Shown in pieces: positions 6,110 to 46,415 of a stretch of 46,415 nt of DNA (the first letter of the stretch is position 1; each line of letters starts with the position of its first letter). The notes beneath the pieces are model-generated. The model was given only the letters and a program-made list of their open reading frames with translations, searched no databases and had not been told where the DNA came from. The position numbers and the translations under genes are program-made. The DNA comes from Candidatus Vogelbacteria bacterium RIFOXYD1_FULL_46_19 (GTDB taxonomy: Bacteria; Patescibacteriota; Minisyncoccia; Phycocordibacterales; XYD1-FULL-46-19). The DNA lies in assembly GCA_001824825.1 (NCBI GenBank), contig MHTK01000006.1, forward strand, positions 1-46,415, written 5' to 3'.

Positions 6110-6117
6110 TAGTTTTG

Positions 6118-16398: not shown

Positions 16399-16455
16399 TG
16401 CAGGGCCGGTGAGAATAAGTGGACAAAAGATCTAATTTTCCTTAAGGTGGGGACT

Positions 16456-32071: not shown

Positions 32072-32076
32072 ACCCT

Positions 32077-33039
32077 ATGCTTAAGACTCGGGTGGGTGTG
32101 ATACGAGGTGGGCCGGGACACGAATACGAAGTGTCTTTGAAAAGCGGTGCTAGCGTGCTCTCTAATTTGCCGGAAAAATATGAAGCACGAGACATTTTTA
32201 TTTCTCGCGAAGGAGAGTGGCATTTGGCAGGTCTAACAATTAAGCCGGAGGAAATTGTCCGGCATGTAGACGTGGTTTTTAATGCATTACACGGGGAGTT
32301 TGGTGAAGATGGGGGTTTGCAGGCTATCTTGGATAATTTAAATATACCCTATACTGGCAGTGGTCGTTTGGCGTCCGCTGTTGGTATTAATAAAGAATCG
32401 GTTAAAGCCATTTGTCGAGCCCACGGTATAAAAGTGCCTTATGGGCTCACACTAGCAGATAATTTTGATCTTCACCAAGCTAGCCAACAAGTCTTTTTAA
32501 AAATTCCCCCGCCGTGGGTGATTAAGCCCTTGGATAAAGGTTCCTCCGTCGGCTTATTTTTTGCTCGGTCCCACAGTGAGTTGGAGGCGGCTTTAGCTAA
32601 AGCTGCTACAGTTAGCGACAATTTACTGATCGAGGAGTACATTAAAGGCAAAGAGGCCACTTGTGGAGTGATTAATAATTTTAGACAAGAAAGGATATAT
32701 AAACTGTTGCCCATTGAAATTAGGCGACCTAGCACTTGCCCAGTGTGGAATTATGAGGATAAATATTCCGGGGTGACGGAAGAAATTTGTCCTGGCTGCT
32801 TTTCCGCCGAGGAAAGTGCGGAGATTCAAACGATCGCCGCTAAAATGCACGAGATTTTAGGTCTCCGTCACTATTCGCGTAGCGACTTCATTGTTTCGTC
32901 GCGTGGGATTTACGCTTTAGAGGTAAACACTTTACCGGGCCTTACCACCGAGTCGCTCTTGCCGAAGGCTCTCGCCGCCATTGGCTGCTCCTACGCTGAC
33001 TTTTTAGACCACACTATAACTCTTGCTTTAAGCTCATAA
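32077..33039 (+). CDS. ddl: D-alanine--D-alanine ligase
   Basis: GGPGHEYEVSL, LHGEFGEDG, GSSVG, NYEDKY, EVNTLPG. Confidence 0.95.
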   Translation: MLKTRVGVIRGGPGHEYEVSLKSGASVLSNLPEKYEARDIFISREGEWHLAGLTIKPEEIVRHVDVVFNALHGEFGEDGGLQAILDNLNIPYTGSGRLASAVGINKESVKAICRAHGIKVPYGLTLADNFDLHQASQQVFLKIPPPWVIKPLDKGSSVGLFFARSHSELEAALAKAATVSDNLLIEEYIKGKEATCGVINNFRQERIYKLLPIEIRRPSTCPVWNYEDKYSGVTEEICPGCFSAEESAEIQTIAAKMHEILGLRHYSRSDFIVSSRGIYALEVNTLPGLTTESLLPKALAAIGCSYADFLDHTITLALSS

Positions 33040-33091
33040 ATCATTATTATTAGCCAGTAATAATTACTAGGCCTAAACGTCTATAGAGCTT

Positions 33092-33406
33092 ATGAATACA
33101 AATCGTAATTTAATAATTTCCATCGTAATTTTGGCCGTTCTATTTGTAGGTGGGATATTTTGGTGGTGGCAGGTGTCCGGTGAGCCGACCGATATTGTAG
33201 GCCAGATTGAGCAGGATTTAGCCAAATACCAGCAAATAGTTAATGAGTGTCAGGGAGTAACCGATGAGAAAGATCAAGTAGAGTGTACGGAGCAATTGGC
33301 CGAGATTGAAGAAAAGTTAGAAGAGTATGAAAATGATCTGCAAAATATTGAAGTCGAGACAGATACCAGTGAAGAGGCTACGACCACTATTCAAGCTGAA
33401 TCATAA
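33092..33406 (+). CDS. Hypothetical membrane-anchored acidic protein
   Basis: N-terminal TM helix and a helical hairpin with two Cys. Confidence 0.7.
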   Translation: MNTNRNLIISIVILAVLFVGGIFWWWQVSGEPTDIVGQIEQDLAKYQQIVNECQGVTDEKDQVECTEQLAEIEEKLEEYENDLQNIEVETDTSEEATTTIQAES

Positions 33407-33430
33407 AATTTAAAGACTTGAAAGGTAGAG

Positions 33431-33460
33431 TAAAGGCTCCACTTGGGGGAGCTTTTATTG
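33431..33460 (+). terminator. Intrinsic terminator
   Basis: TAAAGGCTCC/GGAGCTTTTA hairpin with T-rich tail. Confidence 0.6.
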
Positions 33461-33642
33461 TTTGAATTAGTCGGGCTGCCGACTCAATTGAATTTTCGTC
33501 ACAGTTTAGATTGAGACCTTGCTCGCTAACGATCCGGTAGCGGGCCAATTTTGTGCCGGTCGATTTATTTGGTGTTACTCTTCGACCGGAATATCGGTCT
33601 CAGAGTCCTACAAAAATATAGTCGCTGCGCTTCTTATTTTTG

Positions 33643-33679
33643 TGGACCTAGCGAGAATCGAACTCGCGTTTCGACAATG
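33643..33679 (-). tRNA. 3' half of tRNA-Ala (positions 36-73); 5' half absent, probable att site
   Basis: Minus strand reads C36 A T-TGTCG-AAAC-GCGAG TTCGATT CTCGC-TAGGTCC-A73: canonical T-arm, U70 (G3:U70 alanine identity), discriminator A. Sequence 5' of C36 is not tRNA-like. Confidence 0.78.
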
Positions 33680-33994
33680 TTCACCCTGTTAAATCCAAAA
33701 TGTTACTAGTGGTGTCATTATATCATTTGCTCGAACTTTTTTTGAGCGAGAATGAATCGTCCCGCCACTGCCTCGTAGAGCCTCGGCAACCCCAAAAGAA
33801 AAACACTCCTTGCATTTCTGATTTGGCGGGAGTGAAATTTCTTTTGAAAAAGGAAAGGGTGTTTTTCTTTCGGGGTTCTGCCCTCCAAGTATTCAGGCAG
33901 GTGGCGGAACAATGCGGACGAAGTTTTGGCAAAACTATTTTTTGGAGAAAGGATTTGGCAAAACTTCGGCTCATTCGTTTTTGAATTCGGATGT

Positions 33995-34166
33995 CGCAAA
34001 TGGAAAAGGAGGGTGAGAAGCGAATGCTTGGAGCTTCGCAAGGCCGGAGCGCGACGGCGCGAGGAGGGGTAGCGGAATTTTCCAGCAGAAAAATATCCGT
34101 GACTTGGGGAGGAATTTTCCATTTGCTCCTCTTTTTGTTTTTGAAAAATTGGGGGCGGACAGAAAA
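33995..34166 (+). repeat. Left copy of long inverted repeat
   Basis: Identical to the reverse complement of 46281-46415 except for an extra 37 bp between GGAATTTTCCA direct repeats (34074-34084 and 34111-34121). Confidence 0.95.
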
Positions 34167-34242
34167 AATTGAGAAAAAGTGTTATTCATGTTAGTATAGT
34201 TGTGAGGGTTAGTTTCAACGCTCATACTTATACTATCATACT

Positions 34243-34455
34243 ATGGAAAGCAAACAAAATAGACAAATTGGGGATAAAATAAAAGTCTTTCGAGCAAAGC
34301 AAGGATTGACACAGGACGCTCTTGCGAGAAAGTGCGATATTCCCTATACAACGCTGACTAAGATTGAATCGAATGTGATAACAAAGCCGTCAATCCAAAC
34401 AGTTACCAAAATTGCCGAAGGGTTGGGAATAACCATTGATGATTTGATTAAATAA
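34243..34455 (+). CDS. XRE-family HTH transcriptional regulator
   Basis: IKVFRAKQGLTQDALA...LTKIE...PSIQTVTKIAEGLGITIDDL. Confidence 0.92.
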   Translation: MESKQNRQIGDKIKVFRAKQGLTQDALARKCDIPYTTLTKIESNVITKPSIQTVTKIAEGLGITIDDLIK

Positions 34456-34461
34456 ATTTAT

Positions 34462-36252
34462 ATGCAATCACGAGAAATACGAAAAAAGTTTTTAGATTTT
34501 TTTAAGGAACGAGGACATATAATAGTACCCTCGTCGCCACTTGTGCCAGAGAATGATCCGTCAGTACTTTTCAATACTGCTGGCATGCAACCACTCGTTC
34601 CATATCTCATGGGTTTGCAACATCCGTCAGGATCAAAGCGTATCGCTAATGTGCAAAAATGTGTACGTACTAGTGATATTGATGAGGTTGGGGACAATAC
34701 CCATCTTACTTTCTTCGAGATGCTTGGTAACTGGTCACTTGGTGATTATTTCAAAAAAGACGCGATACAGTGGAGTTTTGAATTCTTAACATCAAAAAAT
34801 AGTGGCTTGGGGCTAGACCCACGACGTCTTTATGTAACGGTCTTTGAAGGTGACGAAAACGCGCCATGCGATAACGATGCACATAGTGTTTGGAAAGAAG
34901 TATTTGAAAATGAAGGCATGGATCCTCAAAAAAGAATCTTTTTCATGGATGCTGCTTCGAACTGGTGGAGCCCGGGAGATAATGGTCCATGTGGACCAGA
35001 TAGTGAGATGTTTTACGATGTGACGGGTGGATTGACTGAGGGCTTGACTAAAGAAGAATTTATCGCAGCTGACAAAAACCAACATGTGGTTGAAATATGG
35101 AATGACGTGTTCATGGAGTATCAAAAGAGTGATGGCAAAATTAGTGGCAAACTCAAAAACCAAAATGTTGATACTGGTTCAGGACTAGAGCGCGTTACTT
35201 GTGTGGTACAAGGGAAAGAAAATGTTTTTGACACTGATTTATTCAAACCCGTCATTAACAAAATATCGTTACTTGCGCAACAGGGTGATGAGCGGTCCAA
35301 GCGTATAATTGCCGACCATATTCGCGCTTCAGTCTTCCTCATTGCTGATGGTATAACTCCTTCAAATACTGAACAGGGTTATGTTTTGCGTCGATTGCTT
35401 CGTCGCGCGATAAGACATGCAGATAAAATTGATATAAAACAAGATTCACTCGTCTCGCTCGTGCCAATAATTGTTGAGGAATACAAAGAAGCCTACCCGA
35501 ATATCTTGGAAAAGCAGGCATTCATGGAACAAGAAGTTCTGAAGGAGGAAATGAAGTTTAGAAAAACCCTTGCTGTTGGTATCAAAGAGTTCGAAAAAAT
35601 AAACACTCCTATTATTTCTGGACATGATGCGTTTATCCTTTTTTCAACATACGGCTTTCCTTTTGAACTGACTTTGGAGCTTGCCGATGAAAAAGGATTG
35701 AAAGTGAATAAGGACGAGTTTCAGATAGAAATGGAAAAACATCAAAACCTTTCACGGACAAGTACATCAGGAAAATTTAAGGGAGGGTTGGCTAACACTA
35801 ATGAGACAACAACGATGCTCCACACAGCAACACACATTATGCTTGCAGGGTTGCGAAAATATTTAGGTGACAGTGTCCATCAGGCAGGCTCTAATATTAC
35901 TGAAGAACGTACACGATTTGATTTTACGTATGAGGGAAAAGTAGAAAGGGAGACGCTTGATCGGGTGGAAAAATATGTGAATGAAGCTATCAGCAAGAAG
36001 TGTAGCGTGGTAACAGAAATCATGGAGAAAGAAACCGCAATGAATGCGGGAGTGGAGGGAAGTTTTTGGGAGAAATACCCAGATAAAGTTACCGTGTATA
36101 CGGTAAGGTGTAGTGACGGTACAGTATATTCACAAGAGCTTTGCGGAGGCCCACATGTTGCTAATACCGGAGATGTTAAAGGAACATTTAAAATTATAAA
36201 AGAAGAAGCGTCGTCCGCTGGTGTTCGACGCATTAAGGGAGTCTTGGAATAA
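34462..36252 (+). CDS. alaS: Alanine--tRNA ligase (596 aa; aminoacylation and editing domains, no C-Ala)
   Basis: LFNTAGMQP, QKCVR, TFFEMLGNWS.GDYFK, GPCGP, EIWN.VF, VDTG.GLER, ADH.R, GYVLRRLLRR. Editing motifs HTATH and ELCGGPH. Confidence 0.96.
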   Translation: MQSREIRKKFLDFFKERGHIIVPSSPLVPENDPSVLFNTAGMQPLVPYLMGLQHPSGSKRIANVQKCVRTSDIDEVGDNTHLTFFEMLGNWSLGDYFKKDAIQWSFEFLTSKNSGLGLDPRRLYVTVFEGDENAPCDNDAHSVWKEVFENEGMDPQKRIFFMDAASNWWSPGDNGPCGPDSEMFYDVTGGLTEGLTKEEFIAADKNQHVVEIWNDVFMEYQKSDGKISGKLKNQNVDTGSGLERVTCVVQGKENVFDTDLFKPVINKISLLAQQGDERSKRIIADHIRASVFLIADGITPSNTEQGYVLRRLLRRAIRHADKIDIKQDSLVSLVPIIVEEYKEAYPNILEKQAFMEQEVLKEEMKFRKTLAVGIKEFEKINTPIISGHDAFILFSTYGFPFELTLELADEKGLKVNKDEFQIEMEKHQNLSRTSTSGKFKGGLANTNETTTMLHTATHIMLAGLRKYLGDSVHQAGSNITEERTRFDFTYEGKVERETLDRVEKYVNEAISKKCSVVTEIMEKETAMNAGVEGSFWEKYPDKVTVYTVRCSDGTVYSQELCGGPHVANTGDVKGTFKIIKEEASSAGVRRIKGVLE

Positions 36253-36266
36253 AGAATATTAATTTT

Positions 36267-37292
36267 ATGAACAAACAAAAATTAACTTTCATCTGTATAG
36301 GAATAATTGTTTTAGCAAGTCTTTCTTTGGTGTTGTTGAGAGACAAAGATTTGACGAGCTCTGTCGTGCCAGAATTAGCACATGTCCGCATTGGTTGGCA
36401 GACTCCATGGGCTACGCAAGGCCAATTGACTCAGATTTTAAAATATACAGATATATTGAAGAATAACGAAATTGAAGGAGACTTCAAAGGATTTACTTAT
36501 GGTGGTCCGTTAAACGAGGCGGCGCTTGCAGGTGAGGTTGATATTATCTTTACAGCAGACCAACCAGCGGCCACTCTGCTCGCAAAGGATGAAAAGTGGA
36601 CTATCATTGGAAGGCTTATGTATAACAGAGTTTCACTCTATGTGCCACCCATGTCTCCTATAACTACATTAGCTGATCTGAAAGGAAAGACCGTAGCAAT
36701 GCCTTTTGGAGCAGCTGCACAACGTGTGGCCTTGAAAGCCGAGCAAGATGCAGGTCTTGATCCTAAAGTGGATGTAAATAACATTAATCTTGGTATTTAT
36801 GAGCAGAGCGATCTTGTTCGTGATCCCAATGCAAAAAAATGGGGCACCATAGATGCAATGGCGGGGTTTGACCCAACACCAGCGATCTTTGAAGAAAAAG
36901 GATTGGTAAAAAACCTACATGTAGGCAAAGTCGTATCGGTGATTGTAGTTTCAAATGATTTTATTAACCGCAACCCCGATTCAGTCAGTCGTTTCCTTAA
37001 ATCGTTTAACGAAGCATATGATTACTACCGAAACAACATATCGCAAGCCGACACATGGTTTGTTGCAGAGTCAGGACTTGATATTACACCGCGTGCATTA
37101 GAGATAGCGGCAGATGTAGAACCAAATCTTAAAGTAACTTCAAAAAATGAAATTCGTATTGGCTTCAATGACGAAGATTATAAGATAATGCAAGAGGCGG
37201 CTGATTTTATTTTTGATCAAGGGTTAGTAAAGAAACGAGTAATTATGAGAGAGCATGTAGACACTTCGTTTCTAGAAGAGATAGCTAAATAA
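36267..37292 (+). CDS. ABC transporter substrate-binding protein, SsuA/NitT/TauT family
   Basis: N-terminal anchor, FTYGGPLNEAALAGEVDI...DQPA, ITTLADLKGKTVA.PFG. Confidence 0.88.
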   Translation: MNKQKLTFICIGIIVLASLSLVLLRDKDLTSSVVPELAHVRIGWQTPWATQGQLTQILKYTDILKNNEIEGDFKGFTYGGPLNEAALAGEVDIIFTADQPAATLLAKDEKWTIIGRLMYNRVSLYVPPMSPITTLADLKGKTVAMPFGAAAQRVALKAEQDAGLDPKVDVNNINLGIYEQSDLVRDPNAKKWGTIDAMAGFDPTPAIFEEKGLVKNLHVGKVVSVIVVSNDFINRNPDSVSRFLKSFNEAYDYYRNNISQADTWFVAESGLDITPRALEIAADVEPNLKVTSKNEIRIGFNDEDYKIMQEAADFIFDQGLVKKRVIMREHVDTSFLEEIAK

Positions 37293-37299
37293 TCACATT

Positions 37300-38442
37300 A
37301 TGCAAAAGAAAAAGAATCTTATTTTTGTTTCATTGGATACGGTACGGGCAGATGTTGCGTACAGTGGAAAATTCGAAGCGATAGAAAAATTAAGAAATGT
37401 AGGTGTTACATTTTTAAATACTATTTCTTCTTCTCCACTTACACCAGTCAGTCACTCTACTGTTTTTACCGGGCTACAACCGTTTAATCACGGTGTCCGT
37501 CACCTTTTTAAAGAGCAAATTAATAAAAATGTTCCGGTTTTAGCAGAGATACTAAAATCAGAGGGATACAAAACCGGAGCAATTGTGTCTTGTCCAGGGA
37601 TGAATAGGTGGTATGGATTCTCACGCGGATTCGACCACTATGATGATGAGATACCGCTTTTAGCTGACGGGAGTGATCCGCTTCAAACGGTTGATGTAAA
37701 AAAACGAGGTACGGCGCTTAAACGAGCTGAGGTTGTTATTGACAGAGCAATACAGTGGATTTCAAAAAATAAAGATGAACAGCCTTTCTTTGCCTTCCTA
37801 CACTTTTTTGATGCTCACTGGCCATATGAAGCGCCTAAGAAATTTGCAGGCGATAACATATACGAAGAGGAGGTTGCATATTCAGCTCATCATTTCGGTT
37901 TATTTATGAAAGAAATGGAAGAAATGAATCTTCTATCAAACACAACAGTTGTTTGTTTTTCTGATCATGGTGAGGATCTTGATGGTATGTATCCGAATGA
38001 CAAGGGTGGTGAAAAACTTGGACATCCCGAAGAATTAGGACATGGATGTTTGCTTTACGATCAGACGCAGAAGGTTGTTTTGATCATAAAAGATCCCTCG
38101 TTAAAAGAAGGAATAAATATTGAAGAGCAAGTAAGATTGGTTGACATCATGCCGACAACACTTGAATTATTAAACATCAAGAAAAGAGTTTTCTCTTTTG
38201 ACGGCATATCTATATTACCTGCAATTAGCGGTGAAAAGTTAAATCTTCCTGCATACTCTGAGACTTTCTATCCGGAAGAGCAAACAGTTGCTACTGGAGG
38301 GAAGTTTTTAGAAACATGTAACAAGAAGTCAATACGTCTCAAAAACTCCGAAAAGATTATTACCCATCTCAACAGTGATTACATTGAGGTTTATGATCTG
38401 AAGCAAGATCCTAATGAGATGAAAAACCTTTCAAAAAATTAA
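37300..38442 (+). CDS. Sulfatase-like (alkaline phosphatase superfamily) hydrolase/transferase 1
   Basis: LDTVRAD, TPVSHSTVFTG, HFFDAHWPY, SDHGE, GHG, LVDIMPT, YDLKQDPNE. Confidence 0.9.
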   Translation: MQKKKNLIFVSLDTVRADVAYSGKFEAIEKLRNVGVTFLNTISSSPLTPVSHSTVFTGLQPFNHGVRHLFKEQINKNVPVLAEILKSEGYKTGAIVSCPGMNRWYGFSRGFDHYDDEIPLLADGSDPLQTVDVKKRGTALKRAEVVIDRAIQWISKNKDEQPFFAFLHFFDAHWPYEAPKKFAGDNIYEEEVAYSAHHFGLFMKEMEEMNLLSNTTVVCFSDHGEDLDGMYPNDKGGEKLGHPEELGHGCLLYDQTQKVVLIIKDPSLKEGINIEEQVRLVDIMPTTLELLNIKKRVFSFDGISILPAISGEKLNLPAYSETFYPEEQTVATGGKFLETCNKKSIRLKNSEKIITHLNSDYIEVYDLKQDPNEMKNLSKN

Positions 38443-38452
38443 TAATAAAAAT

Positions 38453-39841
38453 ATGGGAAATATAAATAAAGTCATTATGATTTGCGTAGATACTTTGAGA
38501 GCCGACACTCTTTTTAACCGTGAGGATTTTTACTTAAAATATAATATCAAACAAAAACTTAATACACCAAATCTTGACTGGTTGGTAAGAGAATCAACTC
38601 TCTTAAAAAATTGTATTACGACATCACCGTATACTACAGCATCCCATGCTTCTTATTTTACTGGCTACTGGCCAAAACATCACTCCGTAATGGATTTTTT
38701 CAAGAATAAATTATCTAAACCAACTATTTATAATTTATTAAATAAAAAAGGTTATAAAACTTTCTTTTGCAATGACTTTCCTTTTATTCTTGGAGACTAT
38801 CTTGGTTTCAAAGAAGGCGTAGATCGTTACTATATTGAAAGTGAATTGGAATGCCTAAAGGATTTTCATAACACAGATGGTAACAAATTTGCGTTCTTCC
38901 ATTTTGCTGATGTCCATTGGCCATATGGATACCACAAGCTAAAAAGTAATAATGAATTTGACTCATTAGAAAATTTTTTAATGGAACAATCGAAAATAAC
39001 AGGGGTTCCTCTCAGTAAAAAAATAAAACCGGGGCCGATAGAAGCGATAAAGGAAGATAAAGAATTATTGCTTGAGCAAAATTATCGAATGATAATAGAC
39101 TATTACTGCAATAAAAAAGATTACAACACAGTAATGCAGTGGTATGCGGATGGAATTTCTCGTTTTGACAACAGTCGCTTCGATGAATTCATAAGGTCGT
39201 TAAAAGATTATGGACTTTTTGATGATCCAAATACATTAATAGTAATATTTGGTGATCATGGTGAGAATTGGTCGGACGAATCATACGGACATTTTAATTC
39301 ATGTGATTATAGTGTAATCAATGTTCCAGTTTTACTTCATAGCAAAAGCATTCCTCGTAAAATAATTAATGAAATAACGAGAACTATAGATATTGTACCT
39401 TCAATAATTAATTTTTTAAATGTCGATATAAAAAATGATTTTGATGGGGTTGATTTATATAGTAAAGCTCCAGATCATTCAGTCACACAATCATGGGTAT
39501 CAGATTTCAAAGAGCTGGTTGGTTTTTTTCAAGAAACAAAAAATAAAAATGAATTTATAGATGGAAAGATAAAAAGTTTTCTTCTAAAAGAAGCGGTAAT
39601 AAAAGACAACAAAAAGCTTGAGTTTAAGTATACCAATTCAGGCGAGGTTGAATATTCAAAATCTTCAATTATTAAAAATGGGCTGGAAATAAACACTGAT
39701 TTGAATTTTCAAGAGGAATTAGGAGAATACTTACGGCGTTATAATCATGATCTCGTAAATAGGTCAGATCAAAACGTAGCAATTGAGGATAAAATTTTGA
39801 ATGAGTTTAAGAATTTAGGATACTATGGTGGAGAACAATAA
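38453..39841 (+). CDS. Sulfatase-like (alkaline phosphatase superfamily) hydrolase/transferase 2
   Basis: VDTLRAD, TTASHASYFTG, HFADVHWPY, GDHGE, TIDIVPS and C-terminal NLGY. Confidence 0.88.
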   Translation: MGNINKVIMICVDTLRADTLFNREDFYLKYNIKQKLNTPNLDWLVRESTLLKNCITTSPYTTASHASYFTGYWPKHHSVMDFFKNKLSKPTIYNLLNKKGYKTFFCNDFPFILGDYLGFKEGVDRYYIESELECLKDFHNTDGNKFAFFHFADVHWPYGYHKLKSNNEFDSLENFLMEQSKITGVPLSKKIKPGPIEAIKEDKELLLEQNYRMIIDYYCNKKDYNTVMQWYADGISRFDNSRFDEFIRSLKDYGLFDDPNTLIVIFGDHGENWSDESYGHFNSCDYSVINVPVLLHSKSIPRKIINEITRTIDIVPSIINFLNVDIKNDFDGVDLYSKAPDHSVTQSWVSDFKELVGFFQETKNKNEFIDGKIKSFLLKEAVIKDNKKLEFKYTNSGEVEYSKSSIIKNGLEINTDLNFQEELGEYLRRYNHDLVNRSDQNVAIEDKILNEFKNLGYYGGEQ

Positions 39842-40535
39842 AAAAAATGAATTAAAAATGATTTGTCTCGAAGAGATTTTGAGACAAAAGACAATCATCT
39901 TTAACGAGTGTGTTATGTTTGACCAACACACAACCATTAATGGTGCGGGGATAGATTTAAGGCCTATTACCTATATTGATTTGCCTGTTTCCTCTCCTCG
40001 TTACTTAGACGCAGTAGGAGAATATATATATGGATTGCAGAAAGTCGTTAATTATCGTTCTTTATGTGGTATAGCTACGCAGGGTCTTTCTTACACATAT
40101 AGCACATCTATAAAATATAACATCCCCGCAATCTACTTTAGGAAGGAACCACAAAAATATGGCACAAATTCTCATCTTGCCGGAAAATTGACACGGGACC
40201 AAACTCCTACACTAATAATTGACAATTTGATCTACTCGGGTAAAACACTCAATTTAGCAGTATCCAAGTTAAAAGAGTCGGATATCTCGATCGCCGGTCT
40301 ATTCACTGTTGTTAAGTTTGAAACTTCTTTTAGTGAGCTCATTGTTGATAATAAATTATTTTATCTCTTAACAGTCAAAGAGATCTATGATTATTTAATT
40401 CAAAATAACTATTTTCCAAAAAATATTGAAAAATACATTAAGCTTTTTTTAAAGGATCAAACCTTATTTCATTCAAAATCAGAGATTTATCTACAATATT
40501 TATCAGAATTAAAGAAGTCAAAAACTAGCTTTTGA
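39825..40535 (+). CDS. Type I phosphoribosyltransferase, PyrE-like, divergent
   Basis: YIDL, GIATQG, RKEPQKYG loop and PRPP-loop variant IIDNLIYSGKT. Confidence 0.78.
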   Translation: MVENNKKNELKMICLEEILRQKTIIFNECVMFDQHTTINGAGIDLRPITYIDLPVSSPRYLDAVGEYIYGLQKVVNYRSLCGIATQGLSYTYSTSIKYNIPAIYFRKEPQKYGTNSHLAGKLTRDQTPTLIIDNLIYSGKTLNLAVSKLKESDISIAGLFTVVKFETSFSELIVDNKLFYLLTVKEIYDYLIQNNYFPKNIEKYIKLFLKDQTLFHSKSEIYLQYLSELKKSKTSF

Positions 40536-40548
40536 CTATATCGATTAT

Positions 40549-41280
40549 ATGTCACAGTCAAAAATTAGCGTAGTAGCAATTGAAGGTTTACATAATTCAG
40601 GGAAAAGTACCCAGATTGCAGATTTATATTCTAATTTGAAAAAAGAAGGAATTTTTGTTGTGGTTTTAAGAGGCCACGGATTTCGTTCAGGCACAGGCTT
40701 AGATATTAATGATCCTGTTTCTTCGTGGTGGCAAAAACATTACCCCTTATTTATGGAAGCAGGACAAAAGGGAAGAGAATCTTTTATGGAGGCAGAAGCT
40801 AGAGCGACAAATAAATTGTACCAAGAGTTATTTGATATTAAAAATAATCTGCTTGAGAAAATGAAGAAAAATAAGTTCGGTAGAGCTGTGATTCTTTTAG
40901 ATAGATCTATAGTGTCTCGTCTCTTTATCTGGCACGGACATTCAAAGAACCCAAACTTTAAAGATTTACTTTCATTTACATACAAAAATACACATAACAA
41001 AGAAACAAAGATAATGCCTATTCCGGACTTATTAATTGTTCTCAATGTTTCTCAAAAGTTATTGCTAAAAAGAAATAAAAACAAGTCTGAGAGAAAAGAT
41101 AAAATTCTTCTTAATAAGAAAATTATATTGAGTCGTTACCAAGATTATATTAAACTAATTAATAATCTCCCAAAAAATATTAAAGAACGGACTTTTATTA
41201 TTAATGCAGGAAGGTCAAAAACTGCTGTTCAAAAAGAAATCCTGAAATTAATTAACAGCCAGTTATATTTTAAAAAATAA
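40549..41280 (+). CDS. Thymidylate-kinase-like P-loop nucleotide kinase
   Basis: AIEGLHNSGKSTQ, LLDRSIVS, PDLLIVL, IINA. Confidence 0.78.
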   Translation: MSQSKISVVAIEGLHNSGKSTQIADLYSNLKKEGIFVVVLRGHGFRSGTGLDINDPVSSWWQKHYPLFMEAGQKGRESFMEAEARATNKLYQELFDIKNNLLEKMKKNKFGRAVILLDRSIVSRLFIWHGHSKNPNFKDLLSFTYKNTHNKETKIMPIPDLLIVLNVSQKLLLKRNKNKSERKDKILLNKKIILSRYQDYIKLINNLPKNIKERTFIINAGRSKTAVQKEILKLINSQLYFKK

Positions 41281-41283
41281 ATT

Positions 41284-41991
41284 ATGCAACATTTAGAAAT
41301 TCTGCCAAATCTAAAAGGAAAGACCGCCGTTATTTATGAGAGAATTTGGTTATTAGAGGAACTTGAATACTTGAAAGAATCAGAATCTGATCATGTTCTG
41401 GCTATTGATAGAAGGATCTACTTGAAAGACGACCATGTTTTTACTGCGATGCAAGGTTCATCAATGATTGCATCGCTAGCCGAACGACTTATACAAGCTG
41501 GGGTTAAAAGAATTATTAGGATAGGAACAACCGGAAGTCTTCACGACGAACACAAGCTATTTGAAATAATTATTCCGATGGCAGTATATAAAGATGAAGG
41601 GACAAGTAATCAATATATTGATAGCATTTTCCCTTGTTTGTGTGATTTTGAATTATCTTCTAAGATTTGTAATCTTTTGCATGTAGCTGGGCACACTCAT
41701 TATCGAGGAGTCACATGGACTACTGACGGACGATGGGTTGAATCTTTAGACAAGATGCACAAATTAAAGAAATGGGGCGTTCTTTCGGTTGACATGGAAA
41801 CATCTGCACTTTATACCGTTTGCTTATTTAATAAAATACCATGCATCGCTTTAAATTTTGTCTCTGATTTTCCAATGAAATCAGAAAAAAATGGCTTAAG
41901 AGGAATACCAGATGATTACGAAATATATAAAAAGGAACTTTTAATAAATGTGGATAAAGTAACTCAGCTAATAGTTAAAGGGAAAATATAG
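41284..41991 (+). CDS. Nucleoside phosphorylase (PNP/UDP family)
   Basis: IIRIGTTGSL, DEGTS..Y, WTTD, VDMETSALY, VSD. Confidence 0.9.
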   Translation: MQHLEILPNLKGKTAVIYERIWLLEELEYLKESESDHVLAIDRRIYLKDDHVFTAMQGSSMIASLAERLIQAGVKRIIRIGTTGSLHDEHKLFEIIIPMAVYKDEGTSNQYIDSIFPCLCDFELSSKICNLLHVAGHTHYRGVTWTTDGRWVESLDKMHKLKKWGVLSVDMETSALYTVCLFNKIPCIALNFVSDFPMKSEKNGLRGIPDDYEIYKKELLINVDKVTQLIVKGKI

Positions 41992-41994
41992 GCC

Positions 41995-42726
41995 ATGAAA
42001 TTTGATACTTCCTTTGAAAAATTTGCGAATGAGTATGATAATGTCATGGGTGATAATGGGGATTATACTCACTTAAAAACTATCACACCGGCACTTTTTG
42101 ATCTTATTAAAAACCCAAAAGGTCTTAAAATTTATGATGTTGGTTGTGGTAACGGATATATTGCTCGTCGTCTTATGCGAGAAGGAGCAAAAGAAGTTTT
42201 TGCGTCTGATATTTCAGAAACCATGATTCATATTGCAAAATCTCGATATCCTATACATTCTATTATTTATTCTATAAGAGATATGTCGGACTTTTCTGGA
42301 TTTAAGGAGGGCTATTTTGACTTAGTTGTTATGAATATGTCGATTTCTTACTCATCAAATATTAAAAAATTAGCAAAGGAAATTGCACGAATTTTAAAAA
42401 CTGGAGGGCGATTTGTTTTTACACTTGATCATCCATTAAAATATTCAGCATATAAGGTGTTTGGTAGGACTGATTTCGATATTACTTTGAAGGACAGCGA
42501 TTATCTTAACGAGAAAGAAAAAACTACTTATAATCATTGGACAAAGCAACAAAATGCTTTAAGGATATACACTCGACCATTGGGATCTTATATTAACGCT
42601 TTAGGAGAATATGGGCTTTTTGTAAAATTTATTAGAGAACCACAATCAAAAGCTGAGTATAAAGATAAAAAAGTAAAAACTAGTATTCCGTTTAAAATTG
42701 CTGTAGAGGTTGTTAAGGTGGTATAA
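41995..42726 (+). CDS. Class I SAM-dependent methyltransferase
   Basis: YDVGCGNG, DISETMI, FDLVV, RILKTGGRFVF..HP. Confidence 0.92.
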   Translation: MKFDTSFEKFANEYDNVMGDNGDYTHLKTITPALFDLIKNPKGLKIYDVGCGNGYIARRLMREGAKEVFASDISETMIHIAKSRYPIHSIIYSIRDMSDFSGFKEGYFDLVVMNMSISYSSNIKKLAKEIARILKTGGRFVFTLDHPLKYSAYKVFGRTDFDITLKDSDYLNEKEKTTYNHWTKQQNALRIYTRPLGSYINALGEYGLFVKFIREPQSKAEYKDKKVKTSIPFKIAVEVVKVV

Positions 42727-42731
42727 GTAAT

Positions 42732-43763
42732 ATGAGAAAAATATCAAAAATAAAAAAAGGTGCGAAAGTAGCAATTCTCTCTCCGTCCTTTGCGGCACCG
42801 GGTAAATGGCCTGCTGTATATGAATTCGGCCTTAAACGACTTCGGGAAAACTTTGGGTTAATTCCCGTGGAGTTTCCGGCAACTAAAAAAATTGGTGCTT
42901 CAAAGGAAGAAAGATCTAAAGATTTAATTAACGCATTCGAAAACAAAAATATAAGTGCGATTATTACTTCTCTCGGGGGTAATGATCAAGTGACTTATAT
43001 TAAGAATCTTCCCAAAGAACCTTTTATTAAAAACCCTAAAGCATTTTTTGGTTATAGCGACAATACTCACTTTATGAACTTTCTTTGGCTCTGTGGTATA
43101 CCATCGTATTATGGCGGAGCAGTGTTAACACAGTTTGCTATGAATGGAGATATGGATGAATTTACTATGCGTTATTTAAAGTACGCACTTTTTGAATCTG
43201 GAGAAAAGGAACTCAAAGTAAGCGAAGTTTTTAATGATGTTGGATTAGATTGGGGCGATAAAAATCTACTGGACAAAAAGCGCATGTATGAAAAAAATGA
43301 TGGGTGGTTTTGGGATGGAAATAATGACGCTAAAGGAATAAGTTGGGGTGGTTGTGTTGAATCTATTGATGAGATATTACGTCATGGAATAAAGATGCCA
43401 ACACTCGAACAGTTTGAACAATGTATTTTATTCATGGAAACTTCAGAGGAAATTCCGTCATCCGATTATGTATTTCGAGTATACCGTGCACTTGGTGAAC
43501 GGGGCATACTAGAGCGTGTAAAAGGCATATTAATTGGACGGCCAAAAGCTTGGGAGTTTAACAAACAGCAATCATTGGAAGAAAGAAAAGCATACCGCGC
43601 AAAACAAAGAGAAATAACACTTGATGTTATCCGCCGGTACAATAAAACTGCGCCAGTAATTCAAAACATGGATTTCGGACACACTGACCCGCAAATTTGC
43701 TTGCCATATGGAAAGTCTGTGCGAATTAATTCTTCTGCAAAAAAGATTTTTGCAGAATTTTAA
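42732..43763 (+). CDS. S66 peptidase (LD-carboxypeptidase/MccF-like)
   Basis: VAILSPS, GGND, FFGYSDNT (Ser), FMETSEE (Glu), DFGHTDPQ (His). Confidence 0.92.
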   Translation: MRKISKIKKGAKVAILSPSFAAPGKWPAVYEFGLKRLRENFGLIPVEFPATKKIGASKEERSKDLINAFENKNISAIITSLGGNDQVTYIKNLPKEPFIKNPKAFFGYSDNTHFMNFLWLCGIPSYYGGAVLTQFAMNGDMDEFTMRYLKYALFESGEKELKVSEVFNDVGLDWGDKNLLDKKRMYEKNDGWFWDGNNDAKGISWGGCVESIDEILRHGIKMPTLEQFEQCILFMETSEEIPSSDYVFRVYRALGERGILERVKGILIGRPKAWEFNKQQSLEERKAYRAKQREITLDVIRRYNKTAPVIQNMDFGHTDPQICLPYGKSVRINSSAKKIFAEF

Positions 43764-43765
43764 AT

Positions 43766-44239
43766 ATGAACAATGAACATAAAAAACATATGGCAGAAGC
43801 GATTGCTCTTTCAAAAGAATCCATTTCTTCTGGCGGAGGACCATTCGGAACAGTGATAGTAAAGGACGGGAAAGTTGTTGGTCGTGGTATAAATCGCGTC
43901 ACAGCATGGAATGACCCCACGGCGCATGGAGAAGTTGTTGCTATTCGTGAAGCATGTAAAAATCTAAACTCATTTCAGCTTGATGACTGTATTATTTATA
44001 CAAGTTGTGAGCCTTGCCCTATGTGTCTTGGGGCAATTTATTGGTCTCGTCCGAAAGCAATTTATTTTGCAAATACAAGGGAGGACGCCGCCTCTATTGG
44101 TTTTGATGATGCTCTTATTTACGCAGAAATTAATGTTCTTTATTTGAATCGGAAGAGACCATTTCATCAGATAATGCGAGAAGAAGCGATTACCGTATTT
44201 CAATCGTGGGCTGAGAAAGAAGGCAAAATCGAGTATTGA
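43766..44239 (+). CDS. guaD: Zn-dependent nucleobase deaminase, Bacillus GuaD-type guanine deaminase
   Basis: GGPFG, DPTAHGEV, SCEPCPMC, GFDD and C-terminal IEY tail. Confidence 0.85.
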   Translation: MNNEHKKHMAEAIALSKESISSGGGPFGTVIVKDGKVVGRGINRVTAWNDPTAHGEVVAIREACKNLNSFQLDDCIIYTSCEPCPMCLGAIYWSRPKAIYFANTREDAASIGFDDALIYAEINVLYLNRKRPFHQIMREEAITVFQSWAEKEGKIEY

Positions 44240-44250
44240 TTATTATAAAA

Positions 44251-44991
44251 ATGCAAAATATATTAAAAAAATTAATAGTTTTGGTGGTGATACTTTTTTT
44301 GTGGCAATTACTATCGTCCAGTATCCACACGATCATTCCTTCTCCTATTGAGGTTTTTACTGCATTATACAATCTTTCGGTCCAGGGGGATATTTTTATA
44401 CATATTTTTGCTAGCTTAAAGAGGGTTGTTGTTGGTTTTTTGATTGCTACATTTCTTGGGGTAGGACTTGCTTTAATAACTGGGTATTACAAAAAGATTG
44501 ACGTATTTCTTAAGCCACTTGTTGAATTTCTACGTCCAATTCCCCCAATAGCATGGATACCTATTGCAATATTAATTTTTGGTCTTGGTGACATGTCGGC
44601 ATATTTTATTGTTTTTATCGGAGCTTTTTTCCCAATATTTACCAATAGTTTTTTTGGTGTCAGCTCCCTGCCTGTTATTTATGAAAATATTGCACACTCA
44701 TTTGAAATAAAAAATTTTATTTTTGTGAAAGATATACTCTTTAAGTTTTCCTTGCCATATATTTTCACAGGTTTAAAAATAGGTATTGGTATGGCATGGA
44801 TGAGTGTTATAGCGGCGGAACTTATCGGAGCACAATCAGGTTTAGGATATTTTATACAGCTCAACAGACTTTTATTGAGAACTGATAATGTTATCGCGGG
44901 AATGATTTTGATCGGGTTTATTGGATATATGCTAAGTTTGCTTTTACTTACAGTGGAAAAAATAATCATTCCGTGGAGTATTAAGAAATAA
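44251..44991 (+). CDS. ABC transporter permease, SsuC/TauC family
   Basis: IIPSP, SLKRV, RPIPPIAWIP, AAELIGAQSGLGY. ATG at 44251, or TTG at 44236. Confidence 0.93.
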   Translation: MQNILKKLIVLVVILFLWQLLSSSIHTIIPSPIEVFTALYNLSVQGDIFIHIFASLKRVVVGFLIATFLGVGLALITGYYKKIDVFLKPLVEFLRPIPPIAWIPIAILIFGLGDMSAYFIVFIGAFFPIFTNSFFGVSSLPVIYENIAHSFEIKNFIFVKDILFKFSLPYIFTGLKIGIGMAWMSVIAAELIGAQSGLGYFIQLNRLLLRTDNVIAGMILIGFIGYMLSLLLLTVEKIIIPWSIKK

Positions 44992-44994
44992 TTT

Positions 44995-45717
44995 ATGTTG
45001 GAACTAAAGAACATCTCCCATTACTATAGGAATCAATCACGAAATACCGAAATTTCGGTGTTTGAAAACTTTAATCTTTTGATTGGAGAAGGAGAAATTG
45101 TCTCCCTCGTGGGAAAATCTGGTTGCGGAAAAACAACATTGGTAAATATTATCGCTGGATATACAGAACCAACCAGCGGTAGTGTTTTTATGAATGGAGA
45201 GAAAGTCGTTGCTCCTGGCAAGGACAGAATTGTAATCAATCAAATACACGATCTTTTTGATTGGATGACGGTATATCAAAATATGAGACTTGTGAGTAAT
45301 GATGATAATGATATTAATAAGTATCTTTCAATGACAAGGCTCAGTGAGTTTGCTGATGCATATCCATACGAACTTTCGGGTGGCATGAAGAAGAGATTAT
45401 CCCTTGCCAGGGCACTGGTTGTTGACCCAAAATTTATTATAATGGATGAACCCTTTAATTCTCTCGATTATCAATTGAGAGAAAAATTCCAAGAAGAATT
45501 ATTAGATATTGTTAGAAAATCTAAAAAAACTATTTTGTTTGTTACGCATGACATAGAAGAAGCAGTATTTTTATCTGATAAAGTTATCATACTCTCAGGC
45601 AGACCAACACAAATAAAAAAAGAAATTGTGATTTCATTTTCAAAAAACAAAGTTGACTCAATAAGAGACACGGAAGATTTCATATTTCTTAAAAAGAAAA
45701 TAAAAGAAGAAATGTAA
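44995..45717 (+). CDS. ABC transporter ATPase, SsuB/TauB family
   Basis: GKSGCGKTT, YPYELSGGMKKR, MDEPF, VTHDIEEA. Confidence 0.95.
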   Translation: MLELKNISHYYRNQSRNTEISVFENFNLLIGEGEIVSLVGKSGCGKTTLVNIIAGYTEPTSGSVFMNGEKVVAPGKDRIVINQIHDLFDWMTVYQNMRLVSNDDNDINKYLSMTRLSEFADAYPYELSGGMKKRLSLARALVVDPKFIIMDEPFNSLDYQLREKFQEELLDIVRKSKKTILFVTHDIEEAVFLSDKVIILSGRPTQIKKEIVISFSKNKVDSIRDTEDFIFLKKKIKEEM

Positions 45718-45743
45718 TTCAAAAGCTTAAGTTTGCAGGGAGC

Positions 45744-46200
45744 ATCCCCGCCGTCTCCTCTTTTTCCCACGGCGGGGATATTGAGCGCGAACGGGAGGGT
45801 GGGTCAAGCGCATTTGTATTTGAGCCTCGGACATTTCCGCTAGGGCGTCCTGACTCACGGATGAGCGCCGCCGTTATCTTGCAATGCAGAAATCCCAAGC
45901 GAAAGCGATACCACATACAGTCGATATGAAAACGAGAAGGGGGGTTGTGCGAGGGCGGACTCCGAAGGCACGCTAAACGAAGCCAGAAAGCTCTAAATGA
46001 CCGCTAAACTCTCTAAAGTACTGAATACTCTAGCAAACCACTGCGAGGGGAGGAGACCGAAGCTGGGGGAAGGATTCCTTCCTTCCCCCAAATAGCATGG
46101 CGCCCGAGCTCCCGCTCTGCAGAGCGGGAGTGCGAGGAAAAGCGCCAAACCTAGACATCTAGGCGCGAGTAGCCCTAGCGGAAATGTCCGAAGCGAATGC
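45744..46200. other. GC-rich, highly self-complementary non-coding region
   Basis: Perfect 20-bp inverted repeat 45827-45846/46172-46191 enclosing several hairpins, plus an 11-bp hairpin at 45744-45779. Confidence 0.75.
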
Positions 46201-46280
46201 CGAGGATGGACTCCGTAGTCAAGGACGAACACTAGCAGAGAAATGACCGAGACAATACTGAAATTGAATTTGTTTTTCTG

Positions 46281-46415
46281 TTTTCTGTCCGCCCCCAATT
46301 TTTCAAAAACAAAAAGAGGAGCAAATGGAAAATTCCGCTACCCCTCCTCGCGCCGTCGCGCTCCGGCCTTGCGAAGCTCCAAGCATTCGCTTCTCACCCT
46401 CCTTTTCCATTTGCG
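46281..46415 (-). repeat. Right copy of long inverted repeat (runs to the window end)
   Basis: 135 bp matching the reverse complement of 33995-34166 minus the 37-bp insertion. Confidence 0.95.

Follow-up and report, generated by a model that had tools for sequence, protein, structure and literature searches.

In the Pseudomonas ats locus the transporter AtsRBC is encoded beside the arylsulfatase AtsA, and MccF, an S66 serine peptidase, confers immunity to microcin C and cleaves aminoacyl-nucleotide analogues. Both bear on a 13-gene operon of Candidatus Vogelbacteria bacterium RIFOXYD1_FULL_46_19, a groundwater bacterium of candidate phyla radiation (CPR) type, which occupies positions 34243-45717 of the stretch of DNA that we analysed (46,415 nucleotides, here called the window). 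The described systems that come closest to this operon are the ascamycin (acm) and nucleocidin (nuc) clusters of Streptomyces, and what is said of these and of related compounds here refers to the accessible parts of the cited literature. The acm cluster encodes the 480-aa "sulfatase" AcmG, the sulfotransferase AcmK, the amidinotransferase AcmN, the hypothetical protein AcmO, the "topoisomerase II" AcmP and the rubrerythrin AcmQ (PMC4257720, Table 1), and among the closest listed relatives of Acm G, N, O, P and Q the spacing of the locus tags is 0, +3, +4, +5 and +6 (PMC4257720). Sulfamylation requires nine nuc genes, nucG included (PMC10946740), and in these sources AcmG, NucG and their partners are known from knockouts only (PMC4257720, PMC10946740). 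The alanine of ascamycin is handled by AcmF, a 370-aa truncated enzyme resembling alanyl-tRNA synthetase (AlaRS), which is without the activation residues, carries N219Q and D232E and moves Ala from Ala-tRNA to dealanylascamycin, whereas AcmD is a full AlaRS (PMC12945691). A second aminoacyl-tRNA synthetase (aaRS) also occurs in the SB-203208 cluster, another cluster for an aaRS-directed product, in which SbzA is a copy of isoleucyl-tRNA synthetase (PMC12945691).

As judged from its predicted products, the operon shares one defining and several accessory gene families with the acm and nuc clusters, lacks their sulfamate-forming features and has an architecture of its own. Its target is probably a sulfamoyl- or sulfo-nucleoside connected with acm/nuc chemistry, whichever the direction in which the operon works. 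More tentatively, and a little short of an even chance in our judgement, we read it as one horizontally acquired unit for the uptake and processing, by detoxification or salvage, of an alanyl-sulfamoyl-type nucleoside. We favour this reading because a rare importer core, found across phyla, is joined to two sulfatase-fold enzymes of the Thr type (Sulf1 and Sulf2), one of them in a family that is required for sulfamylation, because this core is repeatedly linked to AlaRS or an AcmF-like protein and to genes for a phosphoribosyltransferase (PRT) and a nucleoside phosphorylase (PNP), and because the host cannot make 3'-phosphoadenosine 5'-phosphosulfate (PAPS). The window comprises the first 46,415 bases of the 326-kb contig C6 of the host genome (G000; 707,755 bases in 8 contigs, rated 99.09% complete and 0.17% contaminated). 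The 13 open reading frames (ORFs), all on the + strand, are as follows, with L numbers denoting loci in other records.

34243-34455, + strand: XRE-family helix-turn-helix regulator, first gene of the operon (PF01381, E 5e-15); homologues lie 5' of AlaRS in L004 (partial) and L005
34462-36252, + strand: short-form but full-length AlaRS ("type A"), 596 aa, the genome's second AlaRS (end-to-end match to NCBIfam NF002436, 703 bits with the cut-off at 529)
36267-37292, + strand: binding protein of a NitT/TauT-type importer, SsuA/NMT1-like, with a hydrophobic N-terminal anchor or signal (TIGR01728 109 bits, under the cut-off; best PDB match the SsuA structure 2x26)
37300-38442, + strand: Sulf1, sulfatase-fold, 380 aa, Thr at the nucleophile position (PxTPxSH; PF00884, E 2e-33)
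38453-39841, + strand: Sulf2, sulfatase-fold, 462 aa, putatively AcmG/NucG-type, Thr at the nucleophile position (PYT[TS]ASH; PF00884)
39825-40535, + strand: divergent type I PRT resembling orotate phosphoribosyltransferase (OPRT), with a VDNLxYSGxT loop (NCBIfam OPRT models 36-51 bits, under their cut-offs; PDB matches to OPRT and UMP synthase; no Pfam match)
40549-41280, + strand: P-loop kinase resembling thymidylate kinase or deoxynucleoside kinases (PF02223, E 1.6e-9; PDB Tmk 5xbh, E 5e-7), with a sub-threshold APS_kinase match (17 bits)
41284-41991, + strand: NP-I family nucleoside phosphorylase or nucleosidase, the PNP (PF01048, PNP_UDP_1, E 1.4e-29; PDB uridine phosphorylase, AMP nucleosidase and DeoD)
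41995-42726, + strand: class I S-adenosylmethionine (SAM)-dependent methyltransferase (MT; PF08241, E 5e-20)
42732-43763, + strand: S66 serine peptidase of the MccF-like branch (PF02016, PF17676)
43766-44239, + strand: guanine deaminase-like protein of the cytidine deaminase (CDA) fold (PDB 1wkq and 1tiy, guanine deaminase from B. subtilis, full-length match with E 3e-54; the TadA model scores under its cut-off)
44236-44991, + strand: ABC importer permease of the NitT/TauT family (PF00528; best NCBIfam models SaoP, NtrB, TauC and SsuC, all under their cut-offs)
44995-45717, + strand: ABC importer ATPase (PF00005)

The successive intergenic distances are 6, 14, 7, 10, -17, 13, 3, 3, 5, 2, -4 and 3 nt, so that the initial annotation, made from the sequence of the window, was right in describing 13 co-oriented genes with gaps below about 15 nt or overlaps, behind an XRE regulator. 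Contigs from the groundwater run X7 of a different study tile the operon in the same order (34354-35950, 35941-40646, 40884-42477 and 42484-45798) at about 96.5-99% identity, with 19, 163, 18 and 59 differing positions respectively, and the gene order is therefore not an accident of assembly.

The Sulf2 family is rare, with 30 matches among 5.8 billion clusters. Within a sample of 401 genomes from the host order a strong match was found only in the host itself (642 bits, the others reaching at most 57 bits), and when an actinobacterial class was sampled around Actinomadura, 2/401 genomes, the centre genome counted, matched the Sulf2 family at E <= 1e-40. A Sulf2 family alignment scanned over species-representative genomes yielded 27 loci, onto which the 13 proteins of the window were mapped by tblastn. 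A Magasanikbacteria metagenome-assembled genome (MAG; L003), a CPR-like record (L006) and a Chitinophaga MAG (L007) have the genes for binding protein, Sulf1, Sulf2, permease and ATPase in collinear order, and the same five-gene core is clustered in Azospirillum (L011) and Alteraurantiacibacter (L012). Sulf1-type proteins of 47-94% identity occur in 10 of the 27 loci, from CPR-like, Bacteroidota, Myxococcota and Alphaproteobacteria records, and homologues of the binding protein accompany the core in 8 of them. In the Chitinophaga locus the importer-Sulf1-Sulf2 cluster is flanked by an EF-G paralogue, an AAA ATPase and a PP-loop ATPase (4743-7007 and 14954-17086).

Sulf1 and Sulf2, which are 23% identical to each other, had been described as two sulfatase-fold enzymes. 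Neither of them shows the formylglycine motif Cys/Ser-x-Pro-x-Arg. In Sulf2, T61 is invariant in 22/22 sequences, as are D13, H65, D268, H269 and H280, and in Sulf1 the Thr at the nucleophile position is kept in 11/11 homologues; because Thr fills this position, the two proteins cannot be formylglycine sulfatases. An AlphaFold (AF2) model of Sulf2 (pLDDT 85.2, pTM 0.88) has its nearest folds among S1 sulfatases, choline sulfatase and phosphonate monoester hydrolases (TM about 0.55-0.63, identity 13-16%). Both enzymes are predicted to have a sulfatase-like fold, with a chemistry that must proceed via the Thr nucleophile.

The connection to sulfamylation comes from the surroundings of the Sulf2 homologues. 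All ORFs of the loci were clustered, and recurrent families were scanned with Pfam and NCBIfam. In 5 of the 27 loci, namely L009, L010 (Sorangium), L011, L013 and L019 (Actinomadura), the Sulf2 homologue is accompanied by a sulfamylation-type gene set, which consists of a Sulfotransfer_3/_1 protein, a second protein with a weak Sulfotransfer_3 stretch, a protein of the arginine deiminase (ADI)/amidinotransferase fold, a GyrB+methyltransferase fusion (GyrB-MT), a rubrerythrin and a B12-radical SAM protein. In the genome G661 (L091) the Sulf2 homologue is followed by about two genes and then by amidinotransferase-like (N), NucO-like, GyrB-MT (P) and rubrerythrin (Q) genes. Over its full length Sulf2 shares 27-33% identity with proteins inside such acm/nuc-type sets, and because the neighbours of its homologues match the published acm and nuc clusters we place it in the AcmG/NucG family, as a putative member assigned by synteny of homologues. 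The tie to ascamycin/nucleocidin-type chemistry, which had been proposed from the gene content of the operon, gains support from the five loci and from G661. Beyond this set, the genes that recur near Sulf2 homologues encode a 2H phosphoesterase (6 loci), a PaaK-like ligase of the adenylate-forming kind (6 loci), a nucleotidyltransferase, HAD hydrolases and DUF455, and in L008 and L009 a concentrative nucleoside transporter is encoded beside the Sulf2 homologue. A group of ~285-aa proteins that single-linkage clustering of ORFs had put forward as members of the sulfatase family was discarded, as the one that was examined (L008:3623-4492) is a nucleotidyltransferase by Pfam.

Several further operon genes have their like in these clusters. 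The AlaRS corresponds to AcmD, a truncated AcmF-like protein stands in L006, and PRT, PNP and MT parallel AcmV/NucV, NucPNP and AcmL/NucL as far as the accessible descriptions go. Unlike the acm and nuc clusters, the operon possesses a binding-protein-dependent importer, Sulf1, an S66 peptidase and a guanine deaminase, its PRT is OPRT-like and not like an adenine phosphoribosyltransferase, and its host is a 0.7-Mb CPR-type bacterium and not an actinomycete. The whole host genome gave 0 matches to PF13469 (Sulfotransfer_3), PF01583 (APS kinase), PF01747 (ATP sulfurylase) and PF02274 (ADI/amidinotransferase); as a control for these profiles, PF01583 was found in 11/14 and PF01747 in 5/14 control genomes. 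Searches of the genome by tblastn with the L010 proteins and partners likewise gave no sulfotransferase, amidinotransferase, rubrerythrin, nucleotidyltransferase, 2H-phosphoesterase, ligase, HAD, nucleoside-transporter or DUF455 match, and GyrB-MT, radical SAM and PAPS genes are also missing genome-wide, in contrast to the acm and nuc clusters. The objection to a straight sulfamate pathway that was raised at the outset for the window, that sulfotransferase, APS kinase and amidinotransferase are lacking, therefore holds for the entire genome and extends to ATP sulfurylase. Since sulfotransferase, PAPS and amidinotransferase genes were not found, the Streptomyces route to the sulfamoyl group is unavailable to the host.

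It is against this background that biosynthesis has to be weighed as an alternative, in which the operon would make an alanyl-sulfamoyl-type, aaRS-inhibiting nucleoside from an imported sulfur precursor, either free sulfamate or a sulfate ester. Sulf1 and Sulf2 would then transfer the group to a nucleoside that is built or tailored by PRT, PNP, kinase, MT and deaminase, AlaRS would give Ala-tRNA or form the alanyl adduct, and the S66 peptidase together with the second AlaRS would serve self-protection. Thr-nucleophile enzymes of the sulfatase fold are often transferases, an AcmF-like gene lies beside the core in L006, and the Azospirillum locus L011 joins importer and Sulf1 with amidinotransferase-like and GyrB-MT genes, all of which would suit such a pathway, as would the parallels of PRT, PNP, MT and AlaRS to AcmV/NucV, NucPNP, AcmL/NucL and AcmD and the requirement of acmG and nucG for production or sulfamylation in the available accounts. 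We nevertheless consider biosynthesis unlikely, as sulfotransferase, amidinotransferase, APS kinase and ATP sulfurylase are all missing from a genome that is 99% complete, the island around the operon encodes no exporter, its sole transporter being a binding-protein-dependent importer, and no AcmF-like transferase is found in the window. The importer type of the transporter and the lack of sulfamate-making gene matches in the genome are the reasons why we favour breakdown over synthesis.

The link to alanine is seen in several lineages. An AlaRS that is 70-80% identical to that of the operon stands directly 5' of the binding protein in L004, L005 and L028, with the XRE gene before it where the contig reaches that far (L004 and L028 are the same sequence). 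Among the 6 CPR-like loci whose upstream side is visible, 5 have AlaRS or a truncated AcmF-like relative linked to the core; counted by lineage, small CPR-like contigs show the core with a full AlaRS in three and with the truncated AcmF-like relative in one. The assumption that AlaRS belongs to the system is supported by this recurrence. The truncated relative, encoded divergently from the core in L006, is a 377-aa AlaRS-like protein without editing domain that has lost motif 2, has Glu in place of the catalytic Asp (D239E) and keeps 35/90 columns that are invariant in 15 AlaRSs. By the published description of AcmF, its D239E would be equivalent to D232E of AcmF.

The operon AlaRS itself, being full-length and canonical, does not show these AcmF-like features. 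Among 123 columns in which the other 15 sequences never vary it has 2 conservative changes, N216, N237 and D239 are kept, and D447N is the only clade-specific change at near-invariant columns. It is an ordinary enzyme of the housekeeping type with no change in the active site. In this respect it also departs from second copies of the SbzA type: it resembles these in being an extra aaRS in a cluster that points to an aminoacyl-sulfamoyl or sulfonamide compound, but it is a canonical type A enzyme with all invariant residues, and genes for producing the warhead are not present.

The other AlaRS of the host, at the native locus C6:64003-65881 (L002:4003-5881), is 44% identical to the operon AlaRS and has the ancestral context of MnmA, AlaRS and a 381-aa protein that is common to the relatives. 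A frameshift within a stretch of seven G, perhaps an error of assembly, splits it into ORFs of 62 and 575 aa. A decay of the native AlaRS after the gain of the operon was considered and dropped, as outside the out-of-frame start only 1 otherwise-invariant column is changed. In a tree of 18 rows the operon clade (100/100) nests among the single AlaRSs of the order, beside G063 and G064, and the copy at the native locus falls together with the second AlaRS found in the genome G002 (100/99). The order has two ordinary AlaRS subtypes that differ next to the catalytic residues, with A103/G177/W215/T240 in one and Q/E/G/F in the other. A remodelled active site in operon-bearing genomes was rejected for this reason: the shared A103Q, G177E, W215G, T240F and I284V are the ordinary signature of the second subtype ("type B"), of which Q103, E177, G215 and F240 occur in 7/7 and V284 in 5/7 of the best-matching single-copy genomes of the order. 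Many other families of the order have type B as their sole AlaRS (179/401 genomes match at E <= 1e-150). The family of the host mostly has the first subtype (type A) at the MnmA-AlaRS locus, and the host has type B there and type A in the island. None of 60 relatives carries two full AlaRS genes; G002 has one of each type, its operon contig being short and of uncertain binning, and G044, a genome without a Sulf2 match, encodes truncated AlaRS-like paralogues (G044:C1:125053-129541; the ORFs have 439 and 402 aa). The Actinomadura genome G436, to which L019 belongs, was seen to have two full-length AlaRS on its contigs C35 and C28 (ORFs of 864 and 931 aa), unlinked to the sulfamylation-type cluster.

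The remaining genes recur unequally. AlaRS, binding protein, Sulf1, permease and ATPase form a conserved frame, and the interval between Sulf1 and permease varies between loci. The Magasanikbacteria locus L003, for example, matches the window in binding protein (90%), Sulf1 (94%), permease (83%) and ATPase (82%) but in Sulf2 only at 33%, and L004 and L005 carry a Sulf2 of the L003 kind. The PRT family is also rare (12 matches), and a metagenome scan with a PRT alignment retrieved 2 loci from 51 candidates. One of them, L030, has Sulf2 (83%), PRT (77%) and the start of the kinase (64% over its first 53 residues); the other, L031, has binding protein, Sulf1, a 253-aa ORF, Sulf2 (60%), PRT (59%), PNP (64%) and permease. 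A PNP homologue of 31% identity also lies near the core in L006, and four contig sizes shared by the Sulf2 and PRT match lists (11402, 5768, 5194 and 4500) suggest that four further contigs hold both genes. PRT and PNP, which the initial annotation had joined to the system, thus do travel with the core, the former in L030 and L031 and the latter in L031 and L006. The MT has a partial match to the GyrB-MT fusion and does not otherwise recur in the loci, and outside near-identical strains none of kinase, MT, S66 peptidase and deaminase turned up, apart from the kinase start in L030. Of the proposed 13-gene system, the part that concerns the core with AlaRS, PRT and PNP can be retained; the operon as a whole is a mosaic with exchangeable inserts, and S66 peptidase, MT and deaminase were found in 0/29 other loci.

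This mosaic structure raises the question whether there is a joint function at all, or whether three unrelated modules, an XRE-AlaRS unit, the importer with two hydrolases, and a nucleoside/peptidase cassette, have merely recombined at a tRNA hotspot. Such an assembly would fit the step in GC content within the operon from ~0.40 (AlaRS, binding protein, Sulf1) to ~0.30-0.35 from Sulf2 on, the closely matching frame of L003 with its distant Sulf2 and other insert, the four genes that do not recur beyond L030, and a different ~7 kb insert at the same chromosomal site in the relative G011. The tight spacing with stop/start overlaps across the module borders, the recurrence of the AlaRS-core and Sulf2-PRT(-PNP) adjacencies at 59-84% identity, and the placement of the inserted cassettes always between Sulf1 and permease, i.e. 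within the transporter operon, speak against it, and we regard an assembly without joint function as very improbable.

The transporter and the standard salvage enzymes permit a more ordinary explanation, which is best seen in comparison with the Ssu, Tau and ats uptake loci. As in these, sulfatase-fold enzymes share their locus with a NitT/TauT-type ABC importer whose binding protein is SsuA-like. The operon differs from them in that its enzymes have Thr and not the formylglycine motif, all transporter parts score under the cut-offs of the curated Ssu/Tau models, and AlaRS and nucleoside genes are added. In a generic salvage scheme, ordinary organosulfonates, sulfate esters or phosphoesters would be imported and hydrolysed by two enzymes of the alkaline phosphatase superfamily, the nucleoside genes would provide plain purine/pyrimidine salvage for a nucleotide auxotroph, and AlaRS would be a passenger. 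The match of the transporter to the SsuA/TauA/NtrB class, the resemblance of the deaminase to ordinary guanine deaminase, the standard salvage families of PNP, PRT and kinase (with no other copy in the genome) and the occurrence of importer, Sulf1 and Sulf2 without sulfotransferases in Chitinophaga (L007) and Alteraurantiacibacter (L012) all agree with this scheme. What it leaves unexplained is the linkage to AlaRS or AcmF-like proteins in 4 distinct CPR-like lineages, the position of Sulf2 homologues in sulfamylation-type clusters, and the rarity of the system, with a strong Sulf2 match in 1/401 genomes of the order sample, and we think that generic salvage has a rather low probability.

For the S66 peptidase the described counterpart is MccF. 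The operon protein belongs to the same family and length class, its nearest solved structures are MccF-type, and its Ser, Glu and His motifs (GYSD, ETSE and GHT) align with those of a B. anthracis protein. This protein, BA_3275, is the closest structure (5f1y, E 5e-47), followed by the MccF structures 3gjz and 3tla (E 1e-22 to 1e-18, the match to E. coli MccF reaching only 1e-18) and by LdcA (6uuk, E 5e-14); the LdcA equivalog model gives just 41 bits against a cut-off of 378. The assignment of a MccF-like S66 peptidase, made at first from the sequence of the window, is in keeping with the two-domain S66 fold and with this ranking, in which MccF-type structures are closer than LdcA. In contrast to the microcin C system, the island contains no microcin genes, and the S66 gene does not recur at the core elsewhere.

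Returning to uptake and processing of an alanyl-sulfamoyl-type nucleoside, we would guess the substrate to be a nucleoside of the ascamycin/nucleocidin kind, 5'-O-sulfamoyl or N-alanyl-sulfamoyl, that would be made by other microbes. The SsuA-like binding protein, permease and ATPase would import the anionic sulfur-ester nucleoside, the MccF-like S66 peptidase would take off the aminoacyl group, and Sulf1 and Sulf2 would cleave or transfer the sulfamoyl or sulfuryl group via a covalent Thr intermediate, after which PNP, PRT, kinase and guanine deaminase could recycle base and ribose. The XRE protein would control the operon. According to the accessible literature, aaRSs themselves convert nucleoside sulfamates to tight-binding aminoacyl adducts, which would explain why a spare AlaRS, a tRNA-Ala and a MccF-like peptidase are kept together: the extra AlaRS and the tRNA-Ala(CGC) of the island would sustain the supply of alanyl-tRNA while an AlaRS-directed adduct is present. 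We infer the substrate, the direction (breakdown and not synthesis), each of the enzymatic steps and the protective role of AlaRS. A still bolder form, in which the Thr-nucleophile enzymes Sulf1 and Sulf2 are "sulfamatases" or sulfamoyl-transferases of the first dedicated uptake-and-disarm pathway for aminoacyl-sulfamoyl nucleoside antibiotics, appears doubtful to us.

A number of observations weigh against this proposal. The substrate is assigned from gene neighbourhoods only, and the link of Sulf2 to AcmG/NucG is the synteny of homologues that are 27-33% identical. Thr-nucleophile members of PF00884 such as LtaS and EptA are phosphoryl-group transferases, and because of these the substrate of Sulf1 and Sulf2 could, by analogy, be a phosphodiester and not a sulfamate or sulfate ester. 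L003, L004 and L005 carry in the insert a 763-aa HAD-like protein, which in L003 has HAD-IIB as its sole domain and no PDB sequence match, and L003 in addition carries a nucleotidyltransferase. The genes that would take off the aminoacyl group and deaminate the base, and the MT, are those that recur in none of the 29 other loci (27 genome and 2 metagenome loci), the kinase being found only in L030. L004, L005 and L028 are short contigs whose bin labels and sizes suggest uncertain binning, and as its active site is unchanged, nothing in the sequence of the operon AlaRS marks it as drug-insensitive. Finally, the AcmG/NucG family of Streptomyces is needed to make the sulfamoyl group and not to break it, as far as the available accounts go (PMC4257720, PMC10946740).

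A full-text search of the literature found no description of an importer-coupled AcmG-type module, of such genes in Patescibacteria/CPR, or of a breakdown route for nucleoside sulfamates, in agreement with the earlier statement that no CPR pathway of this kind was known. If the proposal is true, a sulfamatase or transferase role of Sulf1 and Sulf2 would reveal the chemistry of AcmG and NucG, and the minimal importer-coupled form with just two sulfatase-fold enzymes would be a small, tractable system for the chemistry by which sulfamoyl groups are made or broken. Carried on a mobile island, the pathway would allow an ultra-small CPR bacterium to use as food, or to withstand, nucleoside antibiotics from its neighbours or host, AlaRS and tRNA-Ala serving as back-up of the target, which would be a rare case of CPR bacteria handling specialised metabolites. 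Nucleoside sulfamates are of current drug interest as "reaction-hijacking" aaRS inhibitors in the literature accessible to us, and a natural module for their uptake, cleavage or tolerance would show how microbes cope with them.

The operon lies in an insertion of ~14 kb (about 33.65-47.63 kb) in the host, as is seen from same-family relatives in which the site is undisturbed. In G026 the order at this site is RR, Ddl, tRNA-Arg, tRNA-Ala(UGC), MscL and then tRNA-Ala(GGC), YchF and the leucyl-tRNA synthetase gene, and in G022 Ddl and tRNA-Ala(UGC) are 276 nt apart with no insert. G011, of the same family, has between Ddl and tRNA-Ala(UGC) an insert of ~7 kb with ~9 ORFs of at least 80 aa (L079, G011:C4, 1325-8590), an insert different from the island of the host; as both stand at the same site, the site is an insertion hotspot. 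Besides the 13 genes, the island contains a GC-rich stretch of 560 nt, tRNA-Ala(CGC) and an ICMT-like gene. The features that surround the operon within the window are these.

33634-33690, - strand: 3' fragment of a tRNA (T arm, acceptor 3' strand and trailer; BLASTN 85.7% over 35 nt, a weak tRNA-like Rfam match and the exact 15-mer GGTCCACAAAAATAA)
33948-34166, no strand assigned: left arm of the inverted repeat on either side of the operon, with exact arms at 33995-34084 and 34111-34166 and promoter-like hexamers at 34141-34197, just 5' of the XRE gene
45718-46280, no strand assigned: GC-rich (0.535), ORF-poor, well-folding stretch (folding against shuffles), part of the island
46281-46415, no strand assigned: right arm of the inverted repeat, running on to C6:46481, with exact arms at 46326-46415 and 46281-46336

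Three tRNA-Ala genes follow just past the end of the window, all on the - strand: CGC (C6:46530-46605), UGC (47632-47705) and GGC (49482-49553). The direct repeat of 33634-33668 and 47624-47658 is a copy of the tRNA-Ala(UGC) 3' end with its trailer, 85.7% identical over 35 nt, and together with the empty site in relatives and an atypical GC content it gives the island the marks of a tRNA-integrated element. Island ORFs of at least 250 aa have a GC content of 0.30-0.41, and of 0.25-0.35 at third codon positions (GC3), against 0.460 +/- 0.043 and 0.458 +/- 0.072 in 339 such ORFs elsewhere in the genome. The location inside a tRNA-Ala island that had been claimed for the operon is correct in substance, given the tRNA-Ala genes beyond the window end and the fragment at 33634-33690, but no tRNA gene stands within the window, where ARAGORN found 0 tRNA genes and Rfam gave 0 matches at gathering thresholds; relaxed Rfam searches of both flanks gave tRNAs and chance-level matches only. 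No integrase or recombinase was found among the ORFs of 33.4-47.7 kb, and L003, with a serine-recombinase fragment beside its core, is the sole locus with such a gene. The tRNA-Ala(CGC) of the island has G3:U70 and an encoded CCA, which tRNA-Ala(UGC) and (GGC) are without. It is not present in the syntenic regions of three relatives; five same-family relatives have weak DNA matches (71-79%) to it, which do not show its absence there.

The operon is further bracketed by the inverted repeat (33948-34166 and 46281-46481), whose exact arms measure 90 and 56 nt. In four groundwater/sediment runs the flanks 33492-34487 and 45444-46415 have a summed contig depth of 15-375 and the left arm one of 27-375 (4/4 runs), against about 2-12 over the genes, and from this depth far above that of the genes we conclude that the flanks are a repeat common to many local organisms. 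The common metagenome form of the flank repeat is without 34014-34103, a joint seen in 4/4 runs, and short copies of the repeat also lie 5' of tRNA-Ala(UGC) in G026 and near tRNA-Asn in the host. The left junction (33.4-34.2 kb) is bridged by no contig in the 4 runs, in which this stretch is a high-copy repeat. X7 and other runs cover the operon with little or no cover over 31998-33491, which was not counted for or against mobility.

PADLOC returned no match for 9/10 operon proteins submitted to it and for the MT a match to the generic MTase part of mad2, and no defence system was assigned. A scan of promoters and terminators gave no excess over shuffled sequence (48 against 40.8 +/- 6.7 and 12 against 9.2 +/- 3.1). 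The stretch 45718-46280 folds with z -4.1 on the - strand and -3.8 on the + strand, 0/100 shuffles being as stable, and is closed by a long-range helix of 20 bp; it belongs to no Rfam family, and neither the loci analysed nor the rest of the genome gave a homologue. Promoter-like hexamers occur in the right repeat arm, which points into this stretch on the - strand. On the basis of the folding calculations, 45718-46280 may be a structured RNA that is read from the right repeat arm.

Sulfamylation-type gene sets were also seen beyond Streptomyces, in Sorangium, Azospirillum, two Acidobacteria MAGs and Actinomadura (L009, L010, L011, L013, L019 and L091), and such clusters hence occur outside the actinomycetes (Sorangium, Azospirillum and Acidobacteria). 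In the accessible part of a review, sulfonamide and sulfamate compounds are listed from actinomycetes only, and judging from their gene content these loci may belong to unreported producers of sulfamate compounds.

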